Positions 4,710-45,631 of a stretch of DNA of 64,000 bases are shown here, piece after piece (positions within the stretch are counted from its first letter, which is position 1; each line of letters begins with the position of its first letter). A program made the translations under genes and the position numbers. The DNA comes from an uncultured Spirochaetota bacterium (GTDB lineage Bacteria; Spirochaetota; Spirochaetia; SZUA-6; Fen-1364), in NCBI GenBank assembly GCA_963820525.1, contig CAWGAA010000001.1:448001-512000 (forward strand). Reading direction: 5' to 3'. The notes under the pieces were generated by a model that did not search any database, was not told the origin of the DNA, and saw only the letters and a program-made list of their open reading frames with translations.

Positions 4710-5486
4710 ATGATCGCAGCGCTCGGCAAATGGGCCAATGAAAAGGCGCGGGATTTCTCATATGCCCTCGGCTTCTTTTTCCAGGTCCTCAAGGAGACGG
4801 TGTTCTTTGTCCGCCGTAAACAGGTCGCCTTCAAGGTCCTGGTCATGCAGATCCTCTTCACCGGCGTGGATGCTCTTGGCATCGTCGCCCTCGTGGCGCT
4901 GTCAATCGGGGCGGTCATCATCGTGGAGGGAAACACGATCCTCCCCCGCTTCGGCCAGACCAGCCTCCTGTACTCGATCCTCATCGTCGTGATCACCCGC
5001 GAGCTGGGTCCGATCCTGACGGCCTTCATCATCATCGCGCGGTCCGGAACCGCCATCACAACGGAGCTTGCCAACATGGTGGTGTCCCACGAGATCGAGG
5101 CCTATATCTCGGTCGGCATCAACCCCATCTCCTACCTCGTCGTGCCGCGTTTTCTCGGGGTCATCATCTCGGTGATGCTCCTCACCGTGTACTTCGACTT
5201 CTTCGGGCTGTTCGGCTCCTTCCTGGTGTCCCAGATCATCAGGCCGGTCCCCTTCCTGGAGTATTTCAGGTCCATCCTCGCCACCCTCCAGGTCAGGGAC
5301 GTAATCTCCACCTTCGTGAAGAGCTTCGTTTTCGGGGTCATCGTTTCGGTGGTGGCCACCTACCAGGGATTCCGCGTGCGCACATCGACAACCGAGATCC
5401 CGCCGGCCGCCATCCGGTCCGTGGGGCAGGGTTTCGTGCTCTGCTTCCTTGCCGATGCGGTCATCACCCTCATCTACTATGTCTGA
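4710..5486 (+). CDS. mlaE: MlaE-family lipid ABC transporter permease
   Basis: RELGPILTAFIIIARSGTAITTELANM..SHEIEA....GINPISYLVVPR. Confidence 0.9.
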   Translation: MIAALGKWANEKARDFSYALGFFFQVLKETVFFVRRKQVAFKVLVMQILFTGVDALGIVALVALSIGAVIIVEGNTILPRFGQTSLLYSILIVVITRELGPILTAFIIIARSGTAITTELANMVVSHEIEAYISVGINPISYLVVPRFLGVIISVMLLTVYFDFFGLFGSFLVSQIIRPVPFLEYFRSILATLQVRDVISTFVKSFVFGVIVSVVATYQGFRVRTSTTEIPPAAIRSVGQGFVLCFLADAVITLIYYV

Positions 5487-6273
5487 GCTGATAGAGCTTC
5501 GCGGCGTGACGGTCACTCTGGGAGACTACGCGGTTCTGCGAGACGTGACCGTGGCATTCCCCGAGGGCAAGAGCACCGTCATCATGGGCCCCTCGGGCTG
5601 CGGCAAGAGCACCCTCCTGAAGGTGGCGGCCGGAATCACGCCTCCGGACAAGGGCAGCGTGTTCTACCGCGGAGAGGACATTTTCTGGATGTCCGAGCGC
5701 AGGGTGCGCGAGATGCGCGCGGTCAACGGATTCGTGTTCCAGGACGCCGCCCTCTGGGAGAACAAGACGATCTTCGACAACCTCGCCCTTCCCCTCCAGG
5801 TGCACGCGCCGGGGCTTTCCCGCGCGGAGATCGAGCGGCGCGTTGTTCGGATGCTTGAGCGCGGCGAGCTGGTGGATTCCATCACCCTGAGGCCCGCGCA
5901 GCTTTCCGGCGGTGAGCGCAAGTTCGTCTCGTTTCTGCGCGCCATCATCCTCGAGCCGTCCCTGCTCTTCCTCGACTCCCCCACCGGCACGATCGATCCC
6001 GCGCTCGCCGACCGCATAACGGGGATGATACGGGAGATCAAGGCGGGAGGCTGCTCCATCCTTGCCGTCAGCCACGACCGCAGGCTCGCCTCCACCCTTG
6101 CGGATCGCCTGGTCGTGCTCTCCGAGGGCTCTCTCCTGGCGCAGGGGGATTTCGATTCGGTGAAGAGAAGCTCCGATGCGAGGGTTCGCGCCGTGCTCTC
6201 CGAGGTGCTGGGAGAGATCGCCTCTTTCGACACGGATCTGCTCACCCTCCTGGGCGGGGAGGACGCGAATTGA
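5479..6273 (+). CDS. mlaF: MlaF-like ABC transporter ATP-binding protein
   Basis: Walker A GPSGCGKS, signature LSGGE, atypical Walker B LFLDSP, H-loop SHD; overlaps the mlaE end. Confidence 0.85.
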   Translation: MSELIELRGVTVTLGDYAVLRDVTVAFPEGKSTVIMGPSGCGKSTLLKVAAGITPPDKGSVFYRGEDIFWMSERRVREMRAVNGFVFQDAALWENKTIFDNLALPLQVHAPGLSRAEIERRVVRMLERGELVDSITLRPAQLSGGERKFVSFLRAIILEPSLLFLDSPTGTIDPALADRITGMIREIKAGGCSILAVSHDRRLASTLADRLVVLSEGSLLAQGDFDSVKRSSDARVRAVLSEVLGEIASFDTDLLTLLGGEDAN

Positions 6274-6299
6274 CAGTAACGGAAGCGCGGGGATAGGAT
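6270..6299 (+). promoter_or_regulatory. Sigma70-type promoter of the MlaD gene (leaderless)
   Basis: TTGACA-18 nt-TAGGAT, 7 nt before ATG 6307. Confidence 0.55.
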
Positions 6300-6306
6300 T
6301 CAAGGG

Positions 6307-7422
6307 ATGAAGTTCAGGATCCGTTTCGTGGATCAGATCGTGGGCATCTTCGTTCTGCTCGCCATTGTCGGCATCGCCGTGATCCTCATCTTCATCGGCA
6401 TCAACCAGAGATGGTTCGCCAAGAACTACTATTTCACGAGCACGTTCCCCTCCGGGGAGGGGCTCGCCGTGGGGATGCCCATCATGCTGCAGGGCTTCGA
6501 GATAGGGAAGATATCGCGCTCTTCCCTCACCACCGACAACCGCGTTGATATCGAGTTCTCCGTCGAGGATACCTACTACGACAAGATCCTTCCCTATACC
6601 GTGATCGAGCTCATCTCGAGCCCCATCGGTCTGGGCACGACCCTGAAGCTCCACCCCGGCAAGGCCAAGGGAAGCCCATTGCCGGAGCACTCCCTCATTC
6701 CCTCGCTGAACTCGCCCGAGGGACAGGAATACGTGGACAAGGGCCTCGTCGAGATGCCGAAGGGGGAGGACGTCATCGGCTCCGTCCTGGCCAAGGTCAA
6801 CCCGATCCTCGACGAGACGAGGAACACCATCGCGCAGCTTCGGCGCGTGGCAACGGATGTGGACCTCGCCCTCAACGGCAAGGGCGGGCCGGTCGGTTCG
6901 ATGGTAAACGAGCTCTCCCTGACCCCCGCCCGGCTCAACCGCACCATCGACATCGTCAACGACAGGGTGGACACCATCACCAATGATGTGAACGTCATCA
7001 CGGGCAAGACCGAAGACATCCTCGGCCGCATCGACACGGTGACAAAGAACCTGCAGGAGATATCGGAGAACCTCAAGGCCACCTCGGAAGGCCTCAAGGA
7101 CACCAAGGGGCTGGCGATGCGGCTCCTGGATCCCAAGGGGTCGGTCAACAGCTTCATGAACGACGACAACGCGCTGTACAACCAGGTTGACGAGGCGCTG
7201 AAAAACCTCAACCAGATCACGGTGCAGATCAAGGGCTTTGTCGACTACGTCAACGGAACCCGGCCGCAGATCTCCAACCTCTTGGAAAAAGGGAGCACGA
7301 CGCTGGACCAAGGCAAGGACGTTCTGGAGGCCGTGAAGAACAATCCTCTGCTCAAGGGCGGGGTCCCCGAGAAGAAGCCTCAAAGCTCGACCCTCAACAG
7401 CTATCGGGACGAGGATTTCTGA
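6307..7422 (+). CDS. MlaD/MCE family protein
   Basis: N-terminal TM, GL.VG.PI...G..IGKI MCE motif, long helical C-terminal region. Confidence 0.85.
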   Translation: MKFRIRFVDQIVGIFVLLAIVGIAVILIFIGINQRWFAKNYYFTSTFPSGEGLAVGMPIMLQGFEIGKISRSSLTTDNRVDIEFSVEDTYYDKILPYTVIELISSPIGLGTTLKLHPGKAKGSPLPEHSLIPSLNSPEGQEYVDKGLVEMPKGEDVIGSVLAKVNPILDETRNTIAQLRRVATDVDLALNGKGGPVGSMVNELSLTPARLNRTIDIVNDRVDTITNDVNVITGKTEDILGRIDTVTKNLQEISENLKATSEGLKDTKGLAMRLLDPKGSVNSFMNDDNALYNQVDEALKNLNQITVQIKGFVDYVNGTRPQISNLLEKGSTTLDQGKDVLEAVKNNPLLKGGVPEKKPQSSTLNSYRDEDF

Positions 7423-14918: not shown

Positions 14919-16274
14919 CTACCCTTCAGTTTTTTTGAGAAGCTCCTGGAGGCGGTCCCTGTTGTAGAGCTCGATCGGCCTGTTCTCCGCGAACTCCAGG
15001 GCTTTTCGCGTGTAGACGGAGCTGGAGACGATCACTCCACGGATCACGTTGTTTTTCCTCATTTCCTCCAGCGTGTCCCGAACGACGGTCTCATCGAGAG
15101 GATCCGTGGTCCTGTAGAATCGCATGAGCCGCGGCATCTTGCGGGTGCCCAGCCGCTTGGAATCGGATTCGAATCCCGATACCTGCACACCTCCCCCCGC
15201 AAGTTCAGAAACGGACATGACCTGCATCCCGAGGCCCTCAGCCACGGTCTGGCAGATCTTGAGGAACTCCTCCTTCGGGGTGGTCAGGTAATCCTTCACC
15301 GAATCGTCCGCCCGAAGCTCCTGGTACTGGCTGAGCTTCTCCGCAACGTCCCGGAAGGTGGGCTTTCTCGCGTATATCTTCTCCCATTCCGAGATCGCCT
15401 TCTCCACCTCCCGCACCTTTTCGTAGCACACGGCGAGGAAGTATCTGCCGTAGAGGGTCACAGGGTCCGTCTCATTGGAGGCGAGGTTGACCGACCGCTC
15501 CAGCTCCGAGATGGCCCTGTCGAAGTTGTTCATGCTCATGAAGCAGCCCCCGCGCTCGACCAGCACCTTCTGCCTGAGCTCGGGGTCTCTCTGGGCTTTC
15601 TCGAACGCATTGAGAGCGGCGGCGTAGTCGTGACTGTCCTTCAAGAGCTTTCCCAGGTAGTAGGAGGCGCCGGCGTTGGAAGGATCTATCTTCACCGCCG
15701 TCTCCAGATCCCTGCGCGCCTCCAGAAGCTTTTTCTGCCTGTACTCAAGCAGGCCGAGCTGGAAGTGGGCCTGGGCGTGATTGGGATCGAGCTGGATGGC
15801 CTTGGCATAGTAGCCCAGAGACTTGTCCGCGTTGCCGCGCTCCTCGAAGAGCATTCCCGTCTTGAAGTAGAAGTCGGCCTCCGCCGGCTGGCTCGTGATG
15901 AGGAGGAGGTACTCCTTGAGCGCCTCGTCCTTCTGATTGAACTTCCAGTACAGCTCGGCGATCTGCCTCCTGAAGGGGATCTCCCTGCAGATTCCCGTGA
16001 AGTCCCCGATCTGATTCACGGCCTTCAGCTCCATCAGCGCCAGCTCGGGCTTCTTCTCCTGGAGAAAGGCCATCCCCAGAAGGTAGTGGGCATCGGCATT
16101 GCGAGGGTCCTTGGCCAACAGCCGCCTGGCCAGACGGATCACCTGCTTTGTCTTTCCGGACTTGAGCATACCTTCGATCGTGGAAATCCGCTGAGGAGAG
16201 AAGAATATGAAATAGGCGAAAATGATCAGAAAGACGAGGACAATTCCGAGAATGACAATGAGAGAAATGAGCAT
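14919..16274 (-). CDS. Membrane-anchored TPR protein with a C-terminal Mrr-like nuclease-fold domain
   Basis: N-terminal TM, about 7 TPRs, C-terminal RGVIVSSSVYTRKALEFAENRPIELYN resembling Mrr_cat; minus-strand TTGACA-17-TACTCT upstream. Confidence 0.75.
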   Translation of the reverse strand: MLISLIVILGIVLVFLIIFAYFIFFSPQRISTIEGMLKSGKTKQVIRLARRLLAKDPRNADAHYLLGMAFLQEKKPELALMELKAVNQIGDFTGICREIPFRRQIAELYWKFNQKDEALKEYLLLITSQPAEADFYFKTGMLFEERGNADKSLGYYAKAIQLDPNHAQAHFQLGLLEYRQKKLLEARRDLETAVKIDPSNAGASYYLGKLLKDSHDYAAALNAFEKAQRDPELRQKVLVERGGCFMSMNNFDRAISELERSVNLASNETDPVTLYGRYFLAVCYEKVREVEKAISEWEKIYARKPTFRDVAEKLSQYQELRADDSVKDYLTTPKEEFLKICQTVAEGLGMQVMSVSELAGGGVQVSGFESDSKRLGTRKMPRLMRFYRTTDPLDETVVRDTLEEMRKNNVIRGVIVSSSVYTRKALEFAENRPIELYNRDRLQELLKKTEG

Positions 16275-21806: not shown

Positions 21807-23555
21807 ATGGAAGAAGTGCCGGCAGTGATCCGGGAGCTCGTCGAGCGCTTCGGCGCGGACGCCCTGGCTACCCAATCGACGCGGGACGAAATCCCCACCG
21901 TGTGGGTGGACCGGGGAAAATTCCGCGAGGTGCTCGCCTTCCTCAAGGCGGCCCCCGGCGGCTCCTACCCCATGCTCTTCGACCTTACCGCGATTGACGA
22001 GCGCTTCCGCGTTCACCGCGAAGGCCAGCCGCTCTCGGATTTTTCGGTCGTCTACCACCTCCTTTCCTTCGACAGGAACCAGGACATCCGCGTGAAGGTG
22101 GCCCTGCGCGGCGAGCACCCCTCCATAGCCACGATCACGGACCTCTGGGCCAACGCCAACTGGTACGAGCGCGAGGCCTGGGACATGTTCGGCATCCGCT
22201 TCGAAGGCCACCCCAACCTGCGCCGCATCCTGATGCCCCCCTGGTGGGAGGGCCACCCCCTGAGAAAGGAGCATCACGCCAGGGCCACGGAGATGGGTCC
22301 TTTCACAATGACTGAAGAGGACACCGAGCGGATGCTCGCCTCCATGGAGTTCAAGCCGGAGGAGTGGGGAATGAAGCGTGAGGAGGGGGATCAGCAGTTC
22401 CTCTTCGTGAATATCGGCCCCCAGCACCCGGGGACCCATGGGCTCCTGCGCCTCGTGGCGCAGCTCGACGGCGAGGAGATCGTGGACCTGGTCTGCGACA
22501 TCGGGTTCCACCACCGCGGGGCCGAAAAGATGGCCGAGAGGCAATCCTGGCACACCTTCATTCCCTACACGGACAGGATCGACTACACCGGCGGCGTGAT
22601 GAACAACTTCCCCTACGTTCTGGCCGTAGAGAAGCTGGCCGGAATCACGGTCCCGGACCGGGCCCAGGTGATCCGCATCATGATGGCTGAGATTTTTCGC
22701 ATTATCAGCCACCTCGTCTACTACGGCACCTTCAGCCAGGACCTGGGACAGATGTCTCCCATCTTCTACATGTTCAACGACCGGGAGAGAGCCTTCGACA
22801 TCGTGGAGGCCGTGACGGGCGGCCGCATGCACCCGGGCTGGTTCCGCATCGGGGGCGTGGCCCAGGACCTCCCCGTGGGATGGGACGCGATGGTGCGGGA
22901 GTTCGTCGCCTCCATGCATCGCAGATTGAAAGATTACGACGTGGCCGTGATGAAAAACCGCATCTTCAAGATGCGGGCCAAAGGGATCGGCTCGGTATCA
23001 CTGGCGGAAGCAATCGAATGGGGCGCCACGGGCCCCTTCCTCCGGGCCTGCGGACTGGAGTGGGACCTCAGGAAGAAAAGGCCCTACGGCGGCTACGAGC
23101 GATTCCAGTTCGACGTTCCCACGGCCGCGAACGGGGATTCCTACGACAGGCTCGCGATACACGTGGAGGAGATGCGCCAGAGCCTGCGGATCATCGAGCA
23201 GTGCCTCAAGAACATGCCCGCCGGACCGTACAAGGCGGACCGTCCCCTCGCCACCCCGCCCATGAAGGAGCGCACGATGCACGACATCGAGACGCTCATC
23301 GACCACTTTCTGGGGGTGAGCTGGGGGCCGCCGATACCCCCGGGGGAAGCCACTGCGACCATCGAGGCCACGAAGGGCAACAATGCCTACTATCTGGTAA
23401 GCGACGGAAACACGATGTCCTACCGGACGCGGATCCGAACCCCTTCCTTCGCCCACATCCAGATGGTGCCCATGATGAGCCGCGGGCTCACGATCCCGGA
23501 CCTCATCACGATTCTGGGAAGCGTCGACTTCGTGCTTGCAGACCTTGACCGATAG
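21807..23555 (+). CDS. nuoCD: NADH-quinone oxidoreductase subunit C/D (fused)
   Basis: NuoC ERE.WDMFGI.F.GHP.LRRIL fused to Nuo[10 protein letters not shown]...DFVLADLDR. Confidence 0.95.
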
Positions 23556-35279: not shown

Positions 35280-37043
35280 CTACAGCGGCCGATCCACGAG
35301 CCTGTAGAGCTCATCCCGCGATACCACGTGCCAGATCGGCCTTCCGTGAGGGCAGCGGGGAACTTCAAGCTCAAGGGCCACGCGCAGAAGCTCGGCGGCC
35401 GCAAGCGGGTCCACCGGGTCTCCCTCTTTCACTGCAAGCCTGCACGCCGCGCGCGCAACAAGATCCCGCCTCCACTCTTCACCGGACGCGATGGAGCCCT
35501 TCACAATCTCGATGAGGCCCGCTTCGGGCAGCGTGGCGAAGTCTGCGCTGAGCGCATCGATCTGGTATGAGCGGATTCCGCTGCGGCGGAGAACCATGCC
35601 CAGGGCGCGAAGATCGTCGAGCCTTTTTGAAAGCTCTGCATCCTCGTCCGCGGATACGTCGAAGCACAACGGAATAAGAAGCTCCTGGATCTTCGCAGTC
35701 GCTGCGTTCAACCGTTGGAAAATGATCTTCTCATGAGCGGCATGCTGATCGAGGAGGATGAGCTTCTCTTCCACCTCGAAAGCCAAAAACACTCCGAACA
35801 CCTGACCGAGAAACCGAGCAGGCACGCCGGCGGGCCTCTCAGCCGCTCCCGCTTGCGGAGGAGAATCAGGGAGGAACCCATCGGGCAGCGCGCGGGAGCC
35901 CGGCCGCAGTGGAAGGTCGAGCGGCCTCTCGCCCCGGTAAATAGGCGCGGCGCCTGAAGCCGGCCGAGAAGGCGCCTGCCCGCCCCCGACTGCGCGCGAT
36001 CTGGTTCCCAGGAACTCGCGGGTGGCGCTTACCACCGCCGCGTGCACGTCAGGGAGATTCCTGAACCGCGCCTCCTTCTTTGCCGGATGAATGTTGAAAT
36101 CGACAAGCGAGGGATCGATCACGATGAAGACAAAGGCCATGGGGTGCCACCCTCCGGGAATAAAGCCGGCAAACCCATACTCCGCCGCCTGCATGAGCGA
36201 GTACTCCGGAATCCGACGGCGATTGACGAATACTTGAAGAAGCTTCCTGTCGCGCTTTCGAAGCGACGGGTCGGCAGCCACGACCTGAACGGAGAACCCA
36301 GTTCCTCTGGACTGCCCAATGCCCAGGAGCCTCTCATCGATCGATTCTCCGTACGCCGAGGATATCCTCTTGGGCGCCGGTGTGGCAGGAAGAAAAAGCT
36401 TCAAAGCGCCGTCCGTGAAAAGGCGAAAAGCGACTCCGGGATGGGCAATGGCCCTATCCACGAAGATGGATCTGCAGAGGCTCGACTCCGCCGAAGGGCT
36501 CTTGAGGAATTTCTTGCGCGCCGGAAAATCGAAAAAAAGCTCCGATACCTCGGCCGCGGTCCCCTCCCTCCCCTGGCAGCTCTCTATGCCCAGGAGCTTT
36601 CCTCCCCGGACCACCAGGCGATTCGCTGGGGACAGCCTTTCCGCGCCGGCACCAGAGGCGGGTTTTGCGTTCAAGCGCGCGGCGCTCACGATCTCCAGGC
36701 GACCGGCCACAGCCATGCTGGAGAGGGCTTCACCTCGGAATCCCAGGCTGGTCACGGTGAGAAGATCGTTTTCCGTCTCGATCTTGGAGGTGGCGTGTGG
36801 CTGCCAGCACAGCTCCAGATCTTCGCGGTCCATGCCGGCCCCATCGTCCACCACGCGAACCCGTGAGACGCCTCCCGCCTCGATGTACACATCTATGGAG
36901 GAAGCGCCCGCGTCGATGCTGTTGTCGAGCAGCTCACGCACAATGGAAAAGGGCCGATCGATCACCTCGCCGGCCGCGATCTTTCGGGAAACCTCGTCCC
37001 GGAGGATTGCGATCCTCCGGGACCGGGAAGCGTCGTCGGGCAT
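35280..37043 (-). CDS. mutL: DNA mismatch repair endonuclease MutL
   Basis: IAAGEVI.RP, GFRGEAL, DQHAAHE, ACR, CPHGRP. Confidence 0.95.
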   Translation of the reverse strand: MPDDASRSRRIAILRDEVSRKIAAGEVIDRPFSIVRELLDNSIDAGASSIDVYIEAGGVSRVRVVDDGAGMDREDLELCWQPHATSKIETENDLLTVTSLGFRGEALSSMAVAGRLEIVSAARLNAKPASGAGAERLSPANRLVVRGGKLLGIESCQGREGTAAEVSELFFDFPARKKFLKSPSAESSLCRSIFVDRAIAHPGVAFRLFTDGALKLFLPATPAPKRISSAYGESIDERLLGIGQSRGTGFSVQVVAADPSLRKRDRKLLQVFVNRRRIPEYSLMQAAEYGFAGFIPGGWHPMAFVFIVIDPSLVDFNIHPAKKEARFRNLPDVHAAVVSATREFLGTRSRAVGGGQAPSRPASGAAPIYRGERPLDLPLRPGSRALPDGFLPDSPPQAGAAERPAGVPARFLGQVFGVFLAFEVEEKLILLDQHAAHEKIIFQRLNAATAKIQELLIPLCFDVSADEDAELSKRLDDLRALGMVLRRSGIRSYQIDALSADFATLPEAGLIEIVKGSIASGEEWRRDLVARAACRLAVKEGDPVDPLAAAELLRVALELEVPRCPHGRPIWHVVSRDELYRLVDRPL

Positions 37044-37054
37044 CTCGGCTCGAC

Positions 37055-39202
37055 CTAGAAGTGGATGCTCGTCTGGATAGCCAGGGACGTGTCCATCTCG
37101 GGCAGTATCGTTTTCGAACCCTCGTTATAGACGATATTTCCGTTTGCATCCCTATGCGCCGTTGCGGAGTAGAGAAGGATAATGTCGAGATTCGGCGTGG
37201 CCGAATAGGCGATCTGCGCGCTCACAACGGTGTTTGCATCGAAGAGGGAAAGCCCTTCGGCACCCTGGCTCTGAAGGATCGTGGAGACGAACCTGTTCCT
37301 TTCATAAGACACGGAGCCCGAGAGGTTGACGACGGGGATTACGCCCTTTTCCAGCGTGAACGTGGCTATGAGGTGGTCGTTTGGATCCGCCACGATCGCC
37401 CCCGTCGAGTCGTACGCCCACGGCCAGTAATAGCCGATCTTGAGCCTCAAGATCTTCTCCAGGGTGAATCCGCCTTCCCCGTAGATGCCCATCTCGACCC
37501 TGTCGAACGCGGGGTCTGAAGGGTTCTGGAGATAACTCATGACCTCTGCGGTGTACAAGAGGCGGTTGGTTCGCGTGTAGACGGTGTCGTAATAAGCAGG
37601 ATGGGAGATTCCCGTGAAATATCGGTATTCCAATCGATAGTCAACCATTACGATGTTGCCCAGGACTCCCGCCGCGACGCCGTAGTTCTTCAGCCCTGAA
37701 TCCCAAAGGGTGTTCCACTGATAGCCGGTCTGGATCGTCGAAAACCAAGGCGGCGCCTGAACAAACGGTACCATACCCGTCATGTCGGCGAAGGCAATGA
37801 GCGAGAGGGCGTCGGACTCGATGAACGGCACGTCGATGTCCAATCCCGGGTTGAAGATCATCATCTTTCCCATCACGTACTCGGCAGGCACGGGGAAACC
37901 CATGATGGGGAGGGTACTGTCCCCCGCGGGATTGAGGTCCGCGAGCAGGGACACGCCCAGCGCGGCGCGGAAGCCGGGGATGGGCCGCGCAAAGAGCCTT
38001 CCGCCGACGATCTGCGGTAGCGCGGCGTCGTCCATCATGGCCTCCATGCCGAAGCCGCCGAGGTCCAGGCCGAGATTGAGTCCGACGCGCCTGACGGCGG
38101 GGAAGTCGGCGTCATTTGCGTAGTCCCTCATGATCACGCCATGGCCGATTGTGATGTCATCAAGGTTGCCCGCTTTGAAGTAGAAGGGGTCCCTCTGCTT
38201 GCCGTATTCGATGTACTTGATCTTGAGAACGAGGTCGTTGAAGGCGTCCAGGGGATCCCAGGCGGAGGCGGAAACGCCGAAGTTCCACTCATCGTTGCCC
38301 GCCGGCCTGTAGTAGTCTCCGGGATCGAACATGTTGTCGGTGTAGATGATGGGGAGGTAGAGACCGAGCTTCAGGTCTCCGATGGAGAATTGCGGGGAAA
38401 TCACGACCTTTGCGTAGGTGTTGCCGCTGATCGTGATCGAACCGATCTCCATGCCGAGGATGTTGCGAAGCCATCCCATGACGCCGTCAAGCGGTCCTCC
38501 TTGGCCCGGTCCGGCCGCCTGCGAGCCGGGGCCGTGTCCCGGAACATCCTGGGGGCTCAGCTTCTCGAAATCCAGGTCCTTGTGGATCTCCTGAAGGAAA
38601 TCAGCAGGGATCTGGACGGGCTTGAACTCCGGAGCCATCGCATCCGCCATCATACCCTTGGAGATTTCCACGGTCTCTCCCGTGGCCGTCTTGGTGAATT
38701 CGATTTCACCATCAAGGACGAAGGCGGTCTCTTTGTCGGTTTCCACGTCGAAGCCGAAGTCAGTGCCGCGAACGCCGCACACGGCCGAGGGCCCCTGCAC
38801 ATTGTACTTTTCCTGGCCCGTGGCCTTTCCGGCAACGGCCCTGATCTTGCCTATGGCGACGGAGAACGTGTTTATTTCGCCCGCGGCGCTCTGGAGGCTG
38901 TCCACCTTGAAGTTCGTCACCTGGGAGACCTTGATGATGGTGCCGTTGGGGTCCAGCTTCAGCTCGACCACGTCGCCCTTGTCCGTGACAACGGTCCAGC
39001 CCGGAAGGAGGCGGGTGCCAATGTCGAACTGCACGGCGTTCTTTCCCTGGTCATAGATGGCGAGATTGCCGCTGGCATTATCGATGTATTCGATGACAAC
39101 GGAAGGAGCCGAACCCTGGGGCTTCTGGGCTTGCGCAAATGCCGCGCACGATATCAGGAGGAGAACCCCTGCTATGACGATGCCTGGTTTTCTCGTATTC
39201 AT
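37055..39202 (-). CDS. FecR-domain protein fused to a predicted outer-membrane beta-barrel
   Basis: Signal peptide, FecR motif GPSAVCGVRGTDF...VLDGEI, amphipathic-strand C-terminal region ending in F (QTSIHF). Confidence 0.7.
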   Translation of the reverse strand: MNTRKPGIVIAGVLLLISCAAFAQAQKPQGSAPSVVIEYIDNASGNLAIYDQGKNAVQFDIGTRLLPGWTVVTDKGDVVELKLDPNGTIIKVSQVTNFKVDSLQSAAGEINTFSVAIGKIRAVAGKATGQEKYNVQGPSAVCGVRGTDFGFDVETDKETAFVLDGEIEFTKTATGETVEISKGMMADAMAPEFKPVQIPADFLQEIHKDLDFEKLSPQDVPGHGPGSQAAGPGQGGPLDGVMGWLRNILGMEIGSITISGNTYAKVVISPQFSIGDLKLGLYLPIIYTDNMFDPGDYYRPAGNDEWNFGVSASAWDPLDAFNDLVLKIKYIEYGKQRDPFYFKAGNLDDITIGHGVIMRDYANDADFPAVRRVGLNLGLDLGGFGMEAMMDDAALPQIVGGRLFARPIPGFRAALGVSLLADLNPAGDSTLPIMGFPVPAEYVMGKMMIFNPGLDIDVPFIESDALSLIAFADMTGMVPFVQAPPWFSTIQTGYQWNTLWDSGLKNYGVAAGVLGNIVMVDYRLEYRYFTGISHPAYYDTVYTRTNRLLYTAEVMSYLQNPSDPAFDRVEMGIYGEGGFTLEKILRLKIGYYWPWAYDSTGAIVADPNDHLIATFTLEKGVIPVVNLSGSVSYERNRFVSTILQSQGAEGLSLFDANTVVSAQIAYSATPNLDIILLYSATAHRDANGNIVYNEGSKTILPEMDTSLAIQTSIHF

Positions 39203-39220
39203 GTGCGCACCTCCCCTGGG

Positions 39221-40571
39221 CTAAAACAGCTTGATGGAGCTCTGGAGGCCGGAGGTTACTATCCAGTCCGGCGACTGCCCCGGAGCATAACGAATCATGT
39301 AGATGAACGATATGACGGCAGGCCCTGTCATGTAGTTGAGCTTGGCCTGGATGGAAGCATTCAGGGGGCTGATAAGCTCGGCCCAGCTCGTTATGCCCTC
39401 CTTGTCATAGCTGCAATCCACCGAGATGCCGGGGATGACGCCCTCCGCAACCGTGAGGATGCCGCGCAGGTGCGGGTAGTTCAGGACGTACTGGGGATCT
39501 CCAGGAGAGGCATCGGGATACGGCACCCCGAAGGGACCATCGAGGACTACGGTGAAGAGGAACTTGTCCTGCAGGAAGGAGGTGCCAAGGCTTGCCAGCC
39601 ATCCGTAGGAGACCGCGGTGGCGAGCCCGGCCTGCACGGTGTCGAAGCGGCTGGACCGGAAAAGGTCATAGGTCGCATCGAAGTAGGAAGGGATGAAGTT
39701 CGGGCCGAGGATCCTGAATTGAGCGCCGTAGGAGAGAAAGCCGATCAGCCGTCCGCCGAGCCCGATGGCACCGCCCATGCTCTTCCCCTGGATGGAAGCC
39801 AGATCCGCGAAGGTGGCGAGCGAGAACACGGGCATGGAGACGATTGGCAGGCGGAGGTCGCCGCCGAAGACCATGATGGGGGCGGCGGCATACGCCGTCG
39901 GGTTGTACAGGTCGGGCAGTGTATCGGCGACAATGGTCCCGCCGAACTCGAGGTCCTTGATGACGGGCGCATCCAATGCCGCCAGGGGCCTCACGTACAA
40001 CCTGCCGCCCACAACGTCGAAGAACGCGAGGTTTCCCACCACGGTCTCGATCCCCACGAAGGGAAAATCGAACAGGGCCCCGTCGAGGTCGAATGAAAGC
40101 CCGAATATCCTCTTGCCCGGCATGAAGAGGGTATTGTCGTAATCCGCCATGATGAAGCCATTGCCCAGGGTGCCGTCCCTGAGTGAGCCCGCCTTTATGA
40201 ATAGCGGATCACCCTTCAAGCCCCAGCGGATGTATGCGATCTTGGAGAGATAGATCGAAAGAAAGTCGCTGAAATCTGCGGGAATCCAGTCGTCTTGCCG
40301 AACGACGATCTGGCTTCCCGAGGTGAAGCGGTAGTTCAGCGTGATATCGAGCCCTATCCCGAATTGCCCGATGCCAATGTCCGGGAAAAGCGTCAGGGAC
40401 TGGTAGGTGACGGGCATCTCCCGGGTCATTGAAGGTGTTCACTCCGATGCCAAGCGCCAGGCCGAAAGCGAGGGGATTGCCCGCCTCCCCCTGTTCCTGC
40501 GAGAAGACCAGCGCCGCCGAGAGACCTGCCAGGAGAAGGATGAGGAAGAGTCGCCGCAGAACAGCCGCCAT
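39221..40571 (-). pseudogene. Predicted beta-barrel protein (paralog of the 37055-39202 barrel), frameshifted near 40420
   Basis: RBS AAGGAGG + ATG 40571 and signal peptide lie in one frame; the body (PVTYQ...SSIKLF) lies in another; may be a sequencing error. Confidence 0.7.
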
Positions 40572-40596
40572 TGCCGCCTCCTTGCAACCTCTTTGA

Positions 40597-40625
40597 ATTA
40601 TAAACCCCATGAAGTGATAAAACAA
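40597..40625 (-). promoter_or_regulatory. Sigma70-type promoter for the barrel gene pair
   Basis: Minus-strand TTGTTT-17 nt-TATAAT upstream of the RBS/ATG 40571. Confidence 0.55.
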
Positions 40626-40633
40626 TTACGGGG

Positions 40634-43600
40634 TCAGAACTTCAGTTTTGCCGTCAACGAAAGTTCAAATGCAATCCGATATGCCGAAAGTCCCGCTGAA
40701 AGGACACTCCTGATCAAATCCGATTCCCGCTTTTCCATCGATAGACCCGTTTTTTGGGAAAACGAGGGAGGTGGTGTGCTCGAGGAGCACGGTGAAGGGA
40801 TGGAATGCCTCGGGGCTCGCGTATCGAAACGTGAGCTCGGCAGATTCCTTGTGGGAGAGAAAGCCCGAATGCCCGATATCAGGGGGGATCAAGGGGATGG
40901 CAAGCCCTCCGGCCGGATGCATGCTCCACTGAAACGCGAGCTCGGTTGCGTCGGTCAGGCTCACGGAGCCGGCGAGGATATCCAGCACTTCCCATTTGAA
41001 GGAATGGGTGAGCGTGAACTCCTCTTCAGCGAAACCCTCGATGCTGGCGTAGAGGTCCGCGGTCGTTTCTGTCCACCGGAAGGCCTGGCCCGGCATGGCG
41101 GTAAGTGAAGCCCCGAATGAGAGGCCGTACTCGTCCGTTCTCGCGAAAGGCATCAGGGGATTGGACCCGAGCTGGCCGAAAAGGTTGAGGGCGCGTGAGG
41201 AGATTTTCGGGAGGATGAAGATCTGGGTGGAAGAAAGCACCCCATCCTTCTTGAGGTCCTGGCCAAGGGTGAGGTCGACCGACGAGGGCAAAAGCAGGTC
41301 ATAGAGATGAGAGCCGAAGCTGCGCTGCACGCTGAAGGTGGCCCGCGGGCTGTAGGTTGCCAGCGACGCTTCCGCCCACAGGGGGAGGATGGCCGAGGAA
41401 TTGTCCTGAAACAGCTCCGCGAAAGGCACCGCGCCCAGCAGATAGCTTTGAAGCCCGATAAGGCTCCCGTAGGTTTGGGCTTCGGAGATGAACCTCTCCC
41501 CCGCCTCGGGGCTGGTGAGCAGGGTGACGAGCCTCTGGTAGCCGAGGCTGATGCTGAGGTCATTGGAAGGTGAGCTTCCGAAGTGAAGCAGGAGTGCAAG
41601 GGAGAGATCGAGGTCGTTTTCCTGGTTCCGAGCCGATGCGGTGAAATCCGCGCTTTTCACGAGCGCTTGCGTGGAGGCATGGATCCCGATGGGGCTAGGC
41701 TGGATGTCGAAGGAGATATCGAGCTTCTCCCGCCTGGCCACATCCTGGCCGCCGGTCCACGGAAGGACCAGCCCCATCTCCCTGACCCACCTCTGGCCAT
41801 ACCAGAGGGAAGGAAGCGGATACCCGGAGACGGCCTGAAATACCTCGATCTCGGAAGCCAGAGCGACGTTTGGGATGGGGGCGAGGGTGAGCTTGCCGTC
41901 CCACCGCTGGCTCAGGAGGCTCTCTGTCCCATCGGATTCGGTGTCGAGCAGAAGGCCCACGCCTCCCAGGGGCTTGATCTCCAGCAGGTTCTCCCTGGTA
42001 AACTCCCCCAGCCATGTGAGTGAGAAAGCGTCCGTGAGGGCGACGGGGAAGCTCACCGAAGGGACAGTGACCCGATGCCCGCCGGAAGCCGTGAAGGTGC
42101 CTGCGAACTCGCGCAGAAGCAGATCCACCGTGATGCTCGAGAACAGGGCGTCCACCCCGAGCTCGGTCTTCGAATAGATGTCTTCGTTCTGGGAGGGAAT
42201 CCCATACAGCGTGGAAAAGCCGGGCGAGATGAGGGAGAGCTTCTGATGCACGGCGAAGTTTCCCAGAAGGGGGACGCCGCCCGCCTGGATGATGACATCG
42301 GGATGCTTGTACGAGACCTCGGCGTCCAGGGCGGCCCCCACGGAGCCTTCCGGGTCCTGGCATTGGACCTCATCGATGTAGATGGCGCCGCTGGCGGTAC
42401 CCGAAACCGTCACTTGGAGCTGCGCGATGCTGCCATACCCGGCGTCGAACCGGGGAGGCGATGCGCCCGTGTCGTTGCCGTCAATTCGCACTTTCCCATC
42501 GCGCTTGGACGCTTTCATCTCGTGCCAGGGCCCGACGGAGATGGCGGAGGAATCCACGTCCCAGGAGATCCCGCGCCCGCTCGTATCTTTCAGGGAGAAG
42601 CTTATTGTGGGGGATCCGGCAAGAGCGGCAGGGATTCGAATGTACAGGGCAATGGTATCGTACTGGATTCCTCCCGTGCCCTGGGTCGCGCTCGCATAAG
42701 CCGTGATAACAAGGGGATTGGTAAGGGGAGTGTAAGACCCCCCCAGGACTGACCCCCACAGAGCTTCCAACACTTCCTGCGGTTCTCCGTTGGGGTGGAA
42801 CATTGTTTTCACTGTCGGGAAGACGTCCGCAAGCCTCTGGCCGGAACCGGGATCGTAAGCAGCCAGGGGCTCGGCGATCTCCTTCACGGAGACGCTTCCT
42901 GGCACAGTGCCAGGCGGGGTCTCCGCCCCATGCTCGGCCGCGCCTTCGAAGGAGATATTATCGATCAGGACCTGCCCCGTCACGCCGGTGGCGCCCGTCG
43001 CCACAATGAGCAGCCGCAGCTGCCGCGTATTGGTGAGCTTCGCTCGCATTGTCCCATCCAGGGGAATCGTCACCTTCTGCCATCCGGAATCGGCTCCCGA
43101 GGAAAAGCCGAGACTCGAGTTTGTGATGGTAAGCACGCGGGAGGCATCCTCCGAGTCGAGGATTCCATTGCCGTCGCGGTCTTCAGAATCGAGCCTGCCG
43201 TTGCCCTGGCCCTTGGGCCCGCCGCCCACCTTGAGGGTCACCCCATGGGCCTGGTCGTAGAAGGGGAAACCGGGGTCCGTGGGCGACGATTCGGCCTGGA
43301 GGATTCCATCGCCGTCGATGTCCTCGGTGATATTCCCCGCCTGCAGATACACCTGGAAATTGCCGCTGACGTCGAGCGTCCGGAGCTCGATTGTGATTGC
43401 CTGCGCCGTGGACAGATCGGCGCCGGTTCCCGCGGCCGGCAGGAGCTGGGCCCCGACCCAGCCGCCGCTGGGCACGTCGAAATCGAACACAAGGCTCGCC
43501 CCGGAGTTGGAGTCAGCCGCACTGCCCAGCACGTTGTAGGGCCCCATCCTGCCGCCGTCCGCATAGGGAACCGATATGGCGCTCGGCCACGTTATGGTAT

Positions 43601-45557
43601 TCAGGGAGGCCCCCCCGAAGGCATCGTACGCCCGGTAGTCCTTGTAAAAGAGGTATCCGCGGTTCCCCTGTGACAGCGCCGGTGCAGGCAATTCCCCCGT
43701 GACCGCGGGGGCAGCCGGGTAAGCGTTGTTCTCGGAGAGATCCACGAAAAGCGAGTTGCCCTCCATGCCGAAAAGCCGAAGGACGCCCGTTGTGTCGGGG
43801 TTTGTATAGGCGACGCCCCCCAGGACCGAGTACGACCAGTTCTCCCCCTCGCCCGAGATGCCGGCCTGGGCAAGTATCGTGCCGGATTTCGCATAGGGTT
43901 TCTGGGAGAAGGACCAGGGATCCGCGTTCCACCGGATGCCGGCCGCGAAGGAAAGCTTCATTGCGTCCGAAAAAGCGATGGTATCCCGCCACGCAAAGAG
44001 GATATCCCCGCCGGAGAGCCCCGCGGATGTCACGCGATAGCGGATCTCGATCCTGTCCGTGGAGCTGACATCGAAGAGGAAGGTCACCCGTCCCGCGGCC
44101 GGGTCTGCCTCGAAGCGGGTCTCCGTGATCCCGTTCACCGTCACCCTCACCGAACCGGGGACAATGTTCGGCTCCAGGTTGAACTCATTGGACGGCGTGA
44201 GGAGCTGGACATAGAGCTGGTAGCCTAAGTATCCCGACAGCGCGTCCCGGGGCTGCCCATAGATGAAACCGTCGTTATCGGGAAAGGGATACATGTTGCG
44301 GAAGTCGTCACGGAAGGCGGAGTTGGCGAAGACCACGAACCTCTGCTGGTCGGGAAGGGACTGGAATTTCAGCGCTTGAGCCGCGGGTGGGATACCATCC
44401 GCCCTCTTTGCCTGGAGCTGGATGAAGATGCGGGAAGGATCCGCCGGCGGCACATCGGTGAAGGCATAGGATGAATCGATCTCGAAGGGCGAGGTGTCGC
44501 CCGGCTCCCAGAGCAGCAGGCAGTTCGTCGCCCCTATGGAAACCCTCCTTGCGGTAAAAGGCTGCCCATTGAAATATGTCGTCAAACCCGAGAAATCAAA
44601 ATCAGCCCCTGCCGGCGGAGGCGGCGGAGCAGCTACAACCCGGCGGGTGTTCAAAGAATCGAGGGGGGGAAGCGCCCCCCTGCCCAGGGTAGCGTCCCCG
44701 ATGGCCACTCCCCCTTTTTTGTAATAGACGAGCACCCTCCCCTTCATCGCTGTTTTCAGCGACACCAGGCCGCCCGCCGCGTCCAGGGACGCATCGTCGA
44801 GGGTGGCGATCCTGTAGATCTTGTTGTCCCCCCCCTTGATGGAACCCCTCTGGGTGTCTTCGATATACACCACGAGGCTCTGGGGATCCACGCCCGCGTC
44901 GGGCAGGAAGAAGAAGCGTCCCCGCACGTAGCCGTCCAGGGGGATCGTCTCCTCCAGGAGCTCATTGGGGCCGAGGAAGGTTTTCGTCTTCTCCTCGGCC
45001 GAATCCCAGCGCAGGAGAAGCTCGTGCGTGGACATTCCGGAGGCGAAAAGGGCGGATGCGCCGAGGGAGCTTGCGGGCTGATCCGGAATCTCCATGAAGC
45101 CGGAAGACGGGATGGCGATGCCCCCGTTTCCCAGGAGGATGCTTCGAATCACCTCGGAACGGTCTCCACGGTAGCCGAGGGTGAGAGTGTTTCGCGTGGA
45201 TCCCGGGGCGGTCGGATCCTGGAAGTAAGCCAGGTCAAGGAAGTATTTCTGCATCAACACCACCGAGGCCGTGAGATTGGGAGACTGGGCGAAGTGGAAC
45301 CCCGTATCCATCGTGGGGAAAGCGTCGAGCAGCTGGAGGGGAAGCCCGGGCACGAAAAGAAACCCCGTGGAGAAGGACAGGCTCCCATCCCATGAGCCGC
45401 CGAGGTTGAAATCCACGCCGGCATCGCCTATCTTGGTGGAAAAGATGGTCGTGGGGGCTTCGGGCTCGGGAACGACGACTTGTTGTGACGGGAGGAGCTT
45501 GACGGTGAACAGCGAGAACACGAGTATGCAGGGAGCAAGCCGAGCCGCGCGTGTCAC
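40634..45557 (-). CDS. Very large (~1640 aa) predicted outer-membrane protein with SprA-like motifs; C-terminal frameshift near 40706
   Basis: ORF 40665-45578, probable GTG start at 45557; a shifted frame supplies the barrel-type C-terminus AYRIAFELSLTAKLKF* ending at 40634. Confidence 0.65.
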
Positions 45558-45631
45558 GTGGAGGACAGTATTCACCAAAACCCCCGTTCATGTAAATGAT
45601 TACCACAACCGAAAATGAAAAAAACAAAGCT

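Follow-up and report, generated by a model that had tools for sequence, protein, structure and literature searches.

A close-packed group of genes on the minus strand of a 64,000-nucleotide stretch of DNA from an uncultured Spirochaetota bacterium (contig CAWGAA010000001.1; hereafter the window) encodes a giant outer-membrane protein followed by two smaller, paralogous beta-barrel proteins (genes 2 and 3). We conclude that the product of the giant gene (4.9 kb) is a Sec-exported, single-chain giant outer-membrane beta-barrel and a remote homologue, about 30% shorter, of SprA/Sov, the capped, 36-strand outer-membrane translocon in Bacteroidota's type IX secretion system (T9SS). That this protein has a SprA-like fold and is homologous to SprA is very probable. 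Our best explanation of the locus as a whole, an operon for a SprA-type giant barrel that exports proteins sideways together with two partner barrels, is evenly balanced between being right and being wrong.

We modelled residues 438-1637 of the giant protein with AlphaFold2, using 47 aligned sequences. The model (mean predicted local distance difference test score (pLDDT) 84.7, predicted TM-score (pTM) 0.59) shows beta-sandwich domains first and then many consecutive strands long enough to cross a membrane; its secondary-structure string has ~29 strands of at least 10 residues in the 1,200 residues covered. When it was compared with the PDB using Foldseek, the first four matches were all SprA chains (8gl8_A, E 2.8e-26; 8gl6_A, 6.1e-25; 6h3i_A, 7.7e-24; 6h3j_A, 6.4e-19), each with probability 1.00 and with alignments of 1,630-1,763 columns. 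The match at rank 5 had E 4.9e-7 and LptD barrels appeared at ~2e-5, leaving SprA ahead by at least 12 orders of magnitude. Our SprA references were the F. johnsoniae structures PDB 6H3I, 6H3J, 8GL6 and 8GL8 and the models TIGR04189 (cut-off 200 bits) and Pfam SprA_N (PF14349, cut-off 27 bits). The non-membrane part of the model resembled carbohydrate-binding modules (CBM11 1v0a, target TM-score 0.53, E 3.6e-4).

Profile-profile comparison with hhalign connected the window family (profile A1) to SprA through a second Spirochaetota family, of ~1,900-aa proteins (profile A5). A1 aligned with A5 over 970 columns (probability 100, E 9.7e-49), and A5 aligned over 1,007 columns (probability 99.8, E 7.7e-29) with P0316, a protein that scores 523 bits on TIGR04189, contains Pfam SprA_N and is similar to F. 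johnsoniae SprA (E 4.1e-31). The direct comparison of A1 with P0316 gave probability 81 and E 1.2e-5. Since three further proteins have intermediate scores on TIGR04189 (P0311, 178 bits; P0060, 130 bits; P0314, 101 bits), the family grades into canonical SprA. Of the 30 clusters that a protein language model placed nearest to the giant protein, 25 contain SprA_N, which we treat as a lead only.

In the printed alignments, conserved blocks are collinear between the giant protein and SprA. These are an N-terminal strand block; a block in which SprA PQGSVVVTAAG (GAFNVPQGSVVVTAAG)...DYQLGRVQILDP corresponds to PGSVRVTVNG...GRVTF in the window protein; and SprA IYVDDFEGS, which corresponds to LRLFGMEG. 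A fourth block, GEVWFNELRLAD, was matched to IYIDEVQCQD by position and pattern only. With 2,403 aa, SprA has ~750 residues more than the giant protein; the difference is distributed along the chain.

Within the giant protein, the block FNLEPNIVPGSVRVTVNG...GRVTF contains two residues (S476 and N482) that are invariant in an alignment of 47 relatives. Two acidic loops rich in Asp and Gly, YLQAGNITEDIDGDG (residues 743-757, ~43308-43352) and GNGRLDSEDRDGNGILD (residues 792-808, ~43155-43205), contain four more (E752, D753, E799 and D800). Both loops fall in the part predicted to form non-membrane beta-sandwich domains, and they may bind calcium. The same loops are present in the ~1,900-aa Spirochaetota family.

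An earlier note, made from the letters of this DNA alone, had proposed a shortened SprA-like protein in a presumed spirochaete. The Foldseek ranking, the profile chain and the origin of the related loci, described below, bear this out. Its ~1640-aa open reading frame (ORF) has 1,637 codons, the start that it gave (45557) being an in-frame GTG; the three motifs that it quoted lie where it placed them, and the GSVRVT..G motif that it ascribed to SprA aligns with PQGSVVVTAAG. Of the checks that it suggested, comparison of a model with SprA structures put SprA first, and conservation of the gene order was found among Spirochaetota. Comparison with SprA profiles gave a connection by way of the profile chain to P0316, while direct scores stayed under the Pfam SprA_N and TIGR04189 cut-offs.

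Several results weigh against homology to SprA. Pfam SprA_N was detected in none of 45 family members (P0001, then 14 and 29 relatives). TIGR04189 was matched by two of 32 members, both far under its cut-off (P0056, 21 bits, E 3.3e-5; P0027, 13.5 bits, E 0.007); P0001 and P0005 did not match it, and P0001 had no match to any Pfam or NCBIfam model. Searches of PDB sequences with phmmer (P0001) and hmmsearch (A1 and A5) recovered no SprA. Finally, TM-scores to SprA were 0.34-0.36 when normalised to the query, a model that lacks the first 437 residues, and 0.21-0.24 when normalised to the target; low values are expected because a partial chain is compared with a protein twice as long, and they still limit the claim.

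A single sequence search with the giant protein recovered 56 relatives at E<=1e-3. A profile of its N-terminal 1,028 positions recovered 1,039 cluster representatives at E<=1e-3, 558 of them at E<=1e-30; the best 150 of the 1,039 are all ordinary family members of ~1,600 aa. Because it has so many relatives, the giant ORF is not a chance reading frame. The ~1,900-aa family, from Spirochaetota metagenome-assembled genomes, comprises P0060 and more than 100 relatives, and a precomputed PF27067.1 match is present in seven of its 113 listed relatives (P0243, P0285, P0290, P0295, P0296, P0298 and P0299).

All 28 related loci in the genome collection come from Spirochaetota, either metagenome-assembled genomes or the Olavius algarvensis spirochaete endosymbiont. 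The operon is conserved across Spirochaetia. In 20 of the 21 related loci with downstream sequence, the giant gene precedes barrel 1, which precedes the FecR-barrel, and mutL lies downstream of the locus in 18. As the upstream genes are syntenic too, part of this conservation is plain chromosome synteny within the clade. In many related loci (L005:7874-9940 and similar), ~2 kb are inserted between the DUF503 gene that precedes the locus and the giant gene; the insert is absent from the window and from L015, L020 and L022. This insert carries, on the other strand, a gene with an ion-transport domain, and we rejected it as a component of the system.

Genes 2 and 3 are paralogous (27% identity over 438 columns, E 3e-18), and this paralogy recurs in related loci at 25-39% identity. 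Gene 2, with ~445 codons when its frameshift is read through, has orthologues of 449-483 aa. Its product (P0002) matched no Pfam family; its neighbours in the language-model comparison are Spirochaetota and Myxococcota clusters without a name, and among named clusters OprD, DUF6029 and Alginate_exp come closest (0.89-0.90). The N-terminal part of the gene 3 product contains a FecR-type beta domain (residues 70-168, ~38699-38995; PF04773 at 31.4 bits, cut-off 24), and a PF04773 match is precomputed for most of its listed orthologues. In an AlphaFold2 model built from 52 sequences (pLDDT 85.6), this domain is followed by a Gly/Pro linker predicted with low confidence (225-236) and then by a beta-barrel at the C-terminus (~250-715), with 18-22 strands estimated from the secondary-structure string. 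In Foldseek, the PDB entries that this model matched best were an LptD model (E 3.2e-9), AlgE (3.7e-9 and similar), porins and C. jejuni MOMP, at TM-scores between 0.2 and 0.4. A sequence search with gene 3 yielded 415 relatives at E<=1e-3, including, at 42% identity, a Spirochaeta thermophila protein annotated as 'FecR family protein'. The paralogy and the gene 3 model agree with the earlier description of the two smaller proteins as paralogous barrels.

Both small barrels also match, far under threshold, the NCBIfam model ImpL63, a Leptospira 'cytoplasmic membrane protein'; within the barrel family, P0002 gave E 1.3e-5 and P0391 gave E 1.6e-5 (~24 bits against a cut-off of 1000). Should the relationship prove genuine, ImpL63 might belong in the outer membrane as a barrel and not in the inner membrane.

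The expected features of an outer-membrane barrel (a signal peptide, an all-beta membrane domain and an aromatic C-terminus) are all present, although for the giant gene and gene 2 only when frameshifts are read through. As written, the giant ORF ends ...GISDCI (GFDQECPFSGTFGISDCI) and not in Phe. The barrel-type Phe end, YRIAFELSLTAKLKF / SAYRIAFELSLTAKLKF (...AKLKF), which the earlier note had assigned to this protein, lies in another frame, where the native C-terminal 23-24 codons run to a stop at 40634. A relative that is 96% identical (P0005, 1,646 aa) is uninterrupted through the shift site (GFDQEILSAGLSAYRIAFELSLTAKLKF) and continues past the GIGFDQE point as DQEILSAGLSAYRIAFELSLTAKLKF, and the consensus of 47 relatives has the C-terminus LEAKLTF. 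Since both read through to the Phe end, we place a frameshift in the window sequence at this point; read through it, the giant protein has ~1,647 aa. The signal peptide of gene 2, MAAVLRRLFLILLLAGLSAALVFSQ, is likewise in a different frame from the body of the gene. As 14 gene 2 orthologues are continuous over the corresponding site (GIGVQTFNEPQPVTYQSLSL), a second frameshift must lie there. Thus, of the two further Phe-ended proteins with signal peptides that had been noted in the same direction, gene 3 is intact, and gene 2 has the Phe end (KLF) with its signal peptide out of frame.

These frameshifts are either local sequence errors or signs that the system is inactive or decaying in this strain. 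Two shifts ~300 bp apart (window 40400-40720), one near the giant gene's 3' end and one in the 5' part of gene 2, count against a working system here: if they are real mutations, this genome would have a decaying pseudogene cluster at the locus. They affect two of the three genes, while the other conserved window genes that we checked (MutL, LepA, EPSP synthase and PBP1) gave full-length, single-frame matches, and the protein collection contains a 100%-identical copy of the gene 3 product but none of the giant protein. However, one shift lies in a short C/G run, a typical site of sequencing error, and each shift removes only a terminus. All three ORFs retain a coding-like GC content by codon position (0.78-0.81 at third positions, GC3), and P0005 is an intact copy at 96% identity. 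We therefore regard decay as a serious possibility that is nonetheless probably wrong.

By analogy with SprA, for which a capped chamber, sideways release of cargo and a role as protein translocon are described (PMC10994853, in the part available), the giant barrel would be an outer-membrane chamber with a cap. As in SprA, proteins from the periplasm would pass into it and exit laterally to the cell surface, and the two smaller barrels would replace the docking partners of SprA (PorV and Plug) as carrier, gate or plug. The conserved gene order suggests that the three proteins may associate physically. Export as the function of the giant barrel, which follows from its homology, is a tentative assignment that falls slightly short of evenly balanced.

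Three observations count against this wider interpretation. No PorV or FadL chain was found among the 50 PDB matches listed for the gene 3 model. A Pfam scan detected no T9SS motor or ring component (GldK/L/M/N, PorK/L/M/N), SprE/PorW, SprT/PorT, PorU, PorV, sortase or C-terminal domain (CTD) protein among the 50 window ORFs. In the locus from the Olavius algarvensis endosymbiont (L028, 22 kb; giant gene at L028:7413-14072), mutL follows the giant gene directly and genes for barrel 1 and the FecR-barrel were not detected; thus, the partners are not always adjacent, or not always present. Of the 'T9SS-related' translocon locus that had been proposed, then, the homology of the translocon stands, and the link to T9SS does not extend to PorV-like partners or to other T9SS genes in the window.

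A different job for the same fold has to be weighed against protein export. The giant barrel and its partners could be a conduit for something other than protein, exporting polysaccharide or glycolipid or taking up large nutrients. The match of gene 3 to the lipopolysaccharide inserter LptD and the alginate exporter AlgE, the named look-alikes of P0002, the CBM-like domain of the giant model and the lack of a T9SS motor or CTD substrate in the window all fit such a role. Against it, the sole characterised homologue, SprA, is a protein translocon (PMC10994853, as far as its available text goes); the AlgE, LptD and porin matches are of a generic barrel type at their low TM-scores; and within the window the locus has no gene for a glycosyltransferase or for polysaccharide synthesis next to it. 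We consider a non-protein conduit unlikely, though a serious possibility. That the giant protein is instead an unrelated large barrel or adhesin with generic beta-barrel and beta-sandwich features would fit the PDB sequence searches without a direct SprA match, the absence of SprA_N from 45 members, the TM-scores below 0.5 and a weak match of the 'GSV.V.VNG' block to a phage tail family (DUF2460/TIGR02217), but is very improbable given the lead of the SprA chains over all other barrels, the profile chain with its ~1,000 collinear columns (E 1e-48 and 8e-29), the intermediate proteins at 101-178 bits and the three blocks ordered as in SprA.

We also considered two narrower candidates for the giant protein. 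A homologue of LptD was rejected on the Foldseek values (~2e-5 compared with 1e-26 for SprA), and an adhesin or passenger-only protein was rejected because the model consists mostly of long membrane-length strands.

Table 1. Coordinates (window positions) of the giant-barrel locus and its parts.
Feature	Position	Strand	Remarks
Giant outer-membrane protein gene (remote SprA homologue)	40634..45578	minus	main frame 40707-45578 plus C-terminal frame 40634-40705
ORF of the giant gene as read	40665..45578	minus	1,637 codons, TTG start
Frameshift, giant gene	40703..40707	minus	directly after ...GIGFDQE; cuts off the last beta-strand and the Phe end
Conserved block FNLEPNIVPGSVRVTVNG...GRVTF	44079..44183	minus	residues 466-500 of the giant protein
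Acidic Asp/Gly-rich loops YLQAGNITEDIDGDG and GNGRLDSEDRDGNGILD	43155..43352	minus	residues 743-808 of the giant protein
Partner barrel 1 (gene 2)	39221..40571	minus	body 39221-40429, 402 codons, ends KLF; ATG at 40571 in the other frame
Signal-peptide-frame ORF of gene 2	40209..40625	minus	contains MAAVLRRLFLILLLAGLSAALVFSQ
Frameshift, partner barrel 1	40418..40425	minus	short C/G run between ...NTFNDP and MPVTYQSL...
Partner barrel 2 (gene 3), FecR domain plus barrel	37055..39202	minus	715 aa, intact, signal peptide, ends IHF
mutL	35280..37043	minus	11 nt downstream of gene 3; conserved neighbour, no functional role claimed

The giant gene, gene 2, gene 3 and mutL lie in this order as four close-packed genes between 35280 and 45578, with 18 nt separating genes 2 and 3. 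Since the DUF503 gene that starts 18 nt upstream of the giant ORF is on the opposite strand, the operon begins with the giant gene; mutL is probably co-transcribed with the three genes. A promoter and terminator scan of the locus gave chance-level counts only, with no convincing terminator between the genes.

The rest of the window is housekeeping in character (a nuo operon, a Mla-type transporter, PBP1, LepA, FtsH and HtrA), and a gene for a SurA-like isomerase lies 8 kb from the locus. The nuo operon (~20.8-35.3 kb) includes a 582-aa ORF (21807-23555, plus strand) for a fused NuoCD, with 30-kDa NuoC and 49-kDa NuoD domains. The Mla-type set (4710-7422, plus strand) comprises a MlaE permease, an ABC ATPase and a MlaD-domain protein, followed by a TPR protein, and is relevant to outer-membrane lipid homeostasis in this diderm. 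In a 451-aa protein (14919-16274, minus strand), numerous TPR repeats occur together with an Mrr_cat restriction-endonuclease domain at the C-terminus (334-446), an unusual pairing.

SprA has been called 'FCB-specific' (of the FCB superphylum; PMC12611786, in the part available), and TXSScan placed T9SS in Bacteroidetes only, according to the available portion of PMC4793230. In our literature search, no account of spirochaete relatives of SprA came up; the closest item, judged by its accessible text, was a Brachyspira preprint with a PorV/PorQ-family annotation (10.1101/2025.01.03.631275). The 1,039 cluster representatives mark a large family of SprA homologues in Spirochaetota, with conserved partners of its own, that the curated models do not see. 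If the giant barrel is an export channel, it would be a testable candidate for protein movement across or onto the spirochaete outer membrane, and the SprA-type barrel with a lateral exit would be older and more widespread than T9SS itself. A more specific proposal is that the operon is the core of an unrecognised spirochaetal export system, a sister of the T9SS translocon that would have no GldKLMN motor. It would rely on two dedicated partner barrels, of which one has a FecR-type plug or adaptor in the periplasm, for the sideways release of proteins or lipoproteins at the cell surface. We consider this proposal doubtful. Were it true, the operon would be a candidate for the long-sought 'flippase' of spirochaete surface lipoproteins, a translocation machinery described as still undiscovered in the available part of PMC7857515. 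As the cultivable Spirochaeta thermophila has at least a gene 3 orthologue, experiments are feasible.

Set beside known systems, the giant protein shares with SprA/Sov, its top structural match, the architecture of one giant beta-barrel chain with folded inserts outside the membrane, the collinear conserved blocks, the signal peptide and the aromatic C-terminal end. It differs in its length, in scoring as a family under every curated cut-off, in belonging to Spirochaetota rather than the FCB group, and in its surroundings, as no GldK/L/M/N, PorU or CTD genes were detected among the 50 window ORFs scanned and there is no PorV-like partner near the giant gene. The ~1,900-aa Spirochaetota family is homologous to the giant protein over ~970 columns, with the same DGDG loops, the same GSV.V..NG block and a Phe end. 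Its members are ~250-300 residues longer and nearer to SprA (130 bits on TIGR04189, compared with none for the window protein).

The two smaller barrels invite comparison with PorV, a FadL-type 14-strand carrier, and Plug, the docking partners of SprA: in this locus, as for SprA, the giant barrel is accompanied by smaller outer-membrane proteins, encoded alongside it, that presumably work with it. Unlike PorV, the gene 3 product is modelled as a barrel resembling LptD, AlgE, MOMP and porins, has no PorV-type Pfam match and carries a FecR-type periplasmic domain, which PorV lacks. That domain, which matches PF04773 above its cut-off, relates gene 3 to FecR-domain proteins such as the FecR anti-sigma factors and Leptospira LipL45, Lsa33 and Lsa19, and gene 3 weakly matches the models of these three Leptospira proteins, far under their cut-offs. 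In gene 3, unlike in those proteins, the FecR domain is fused to a large C-terminal beta-barrel.

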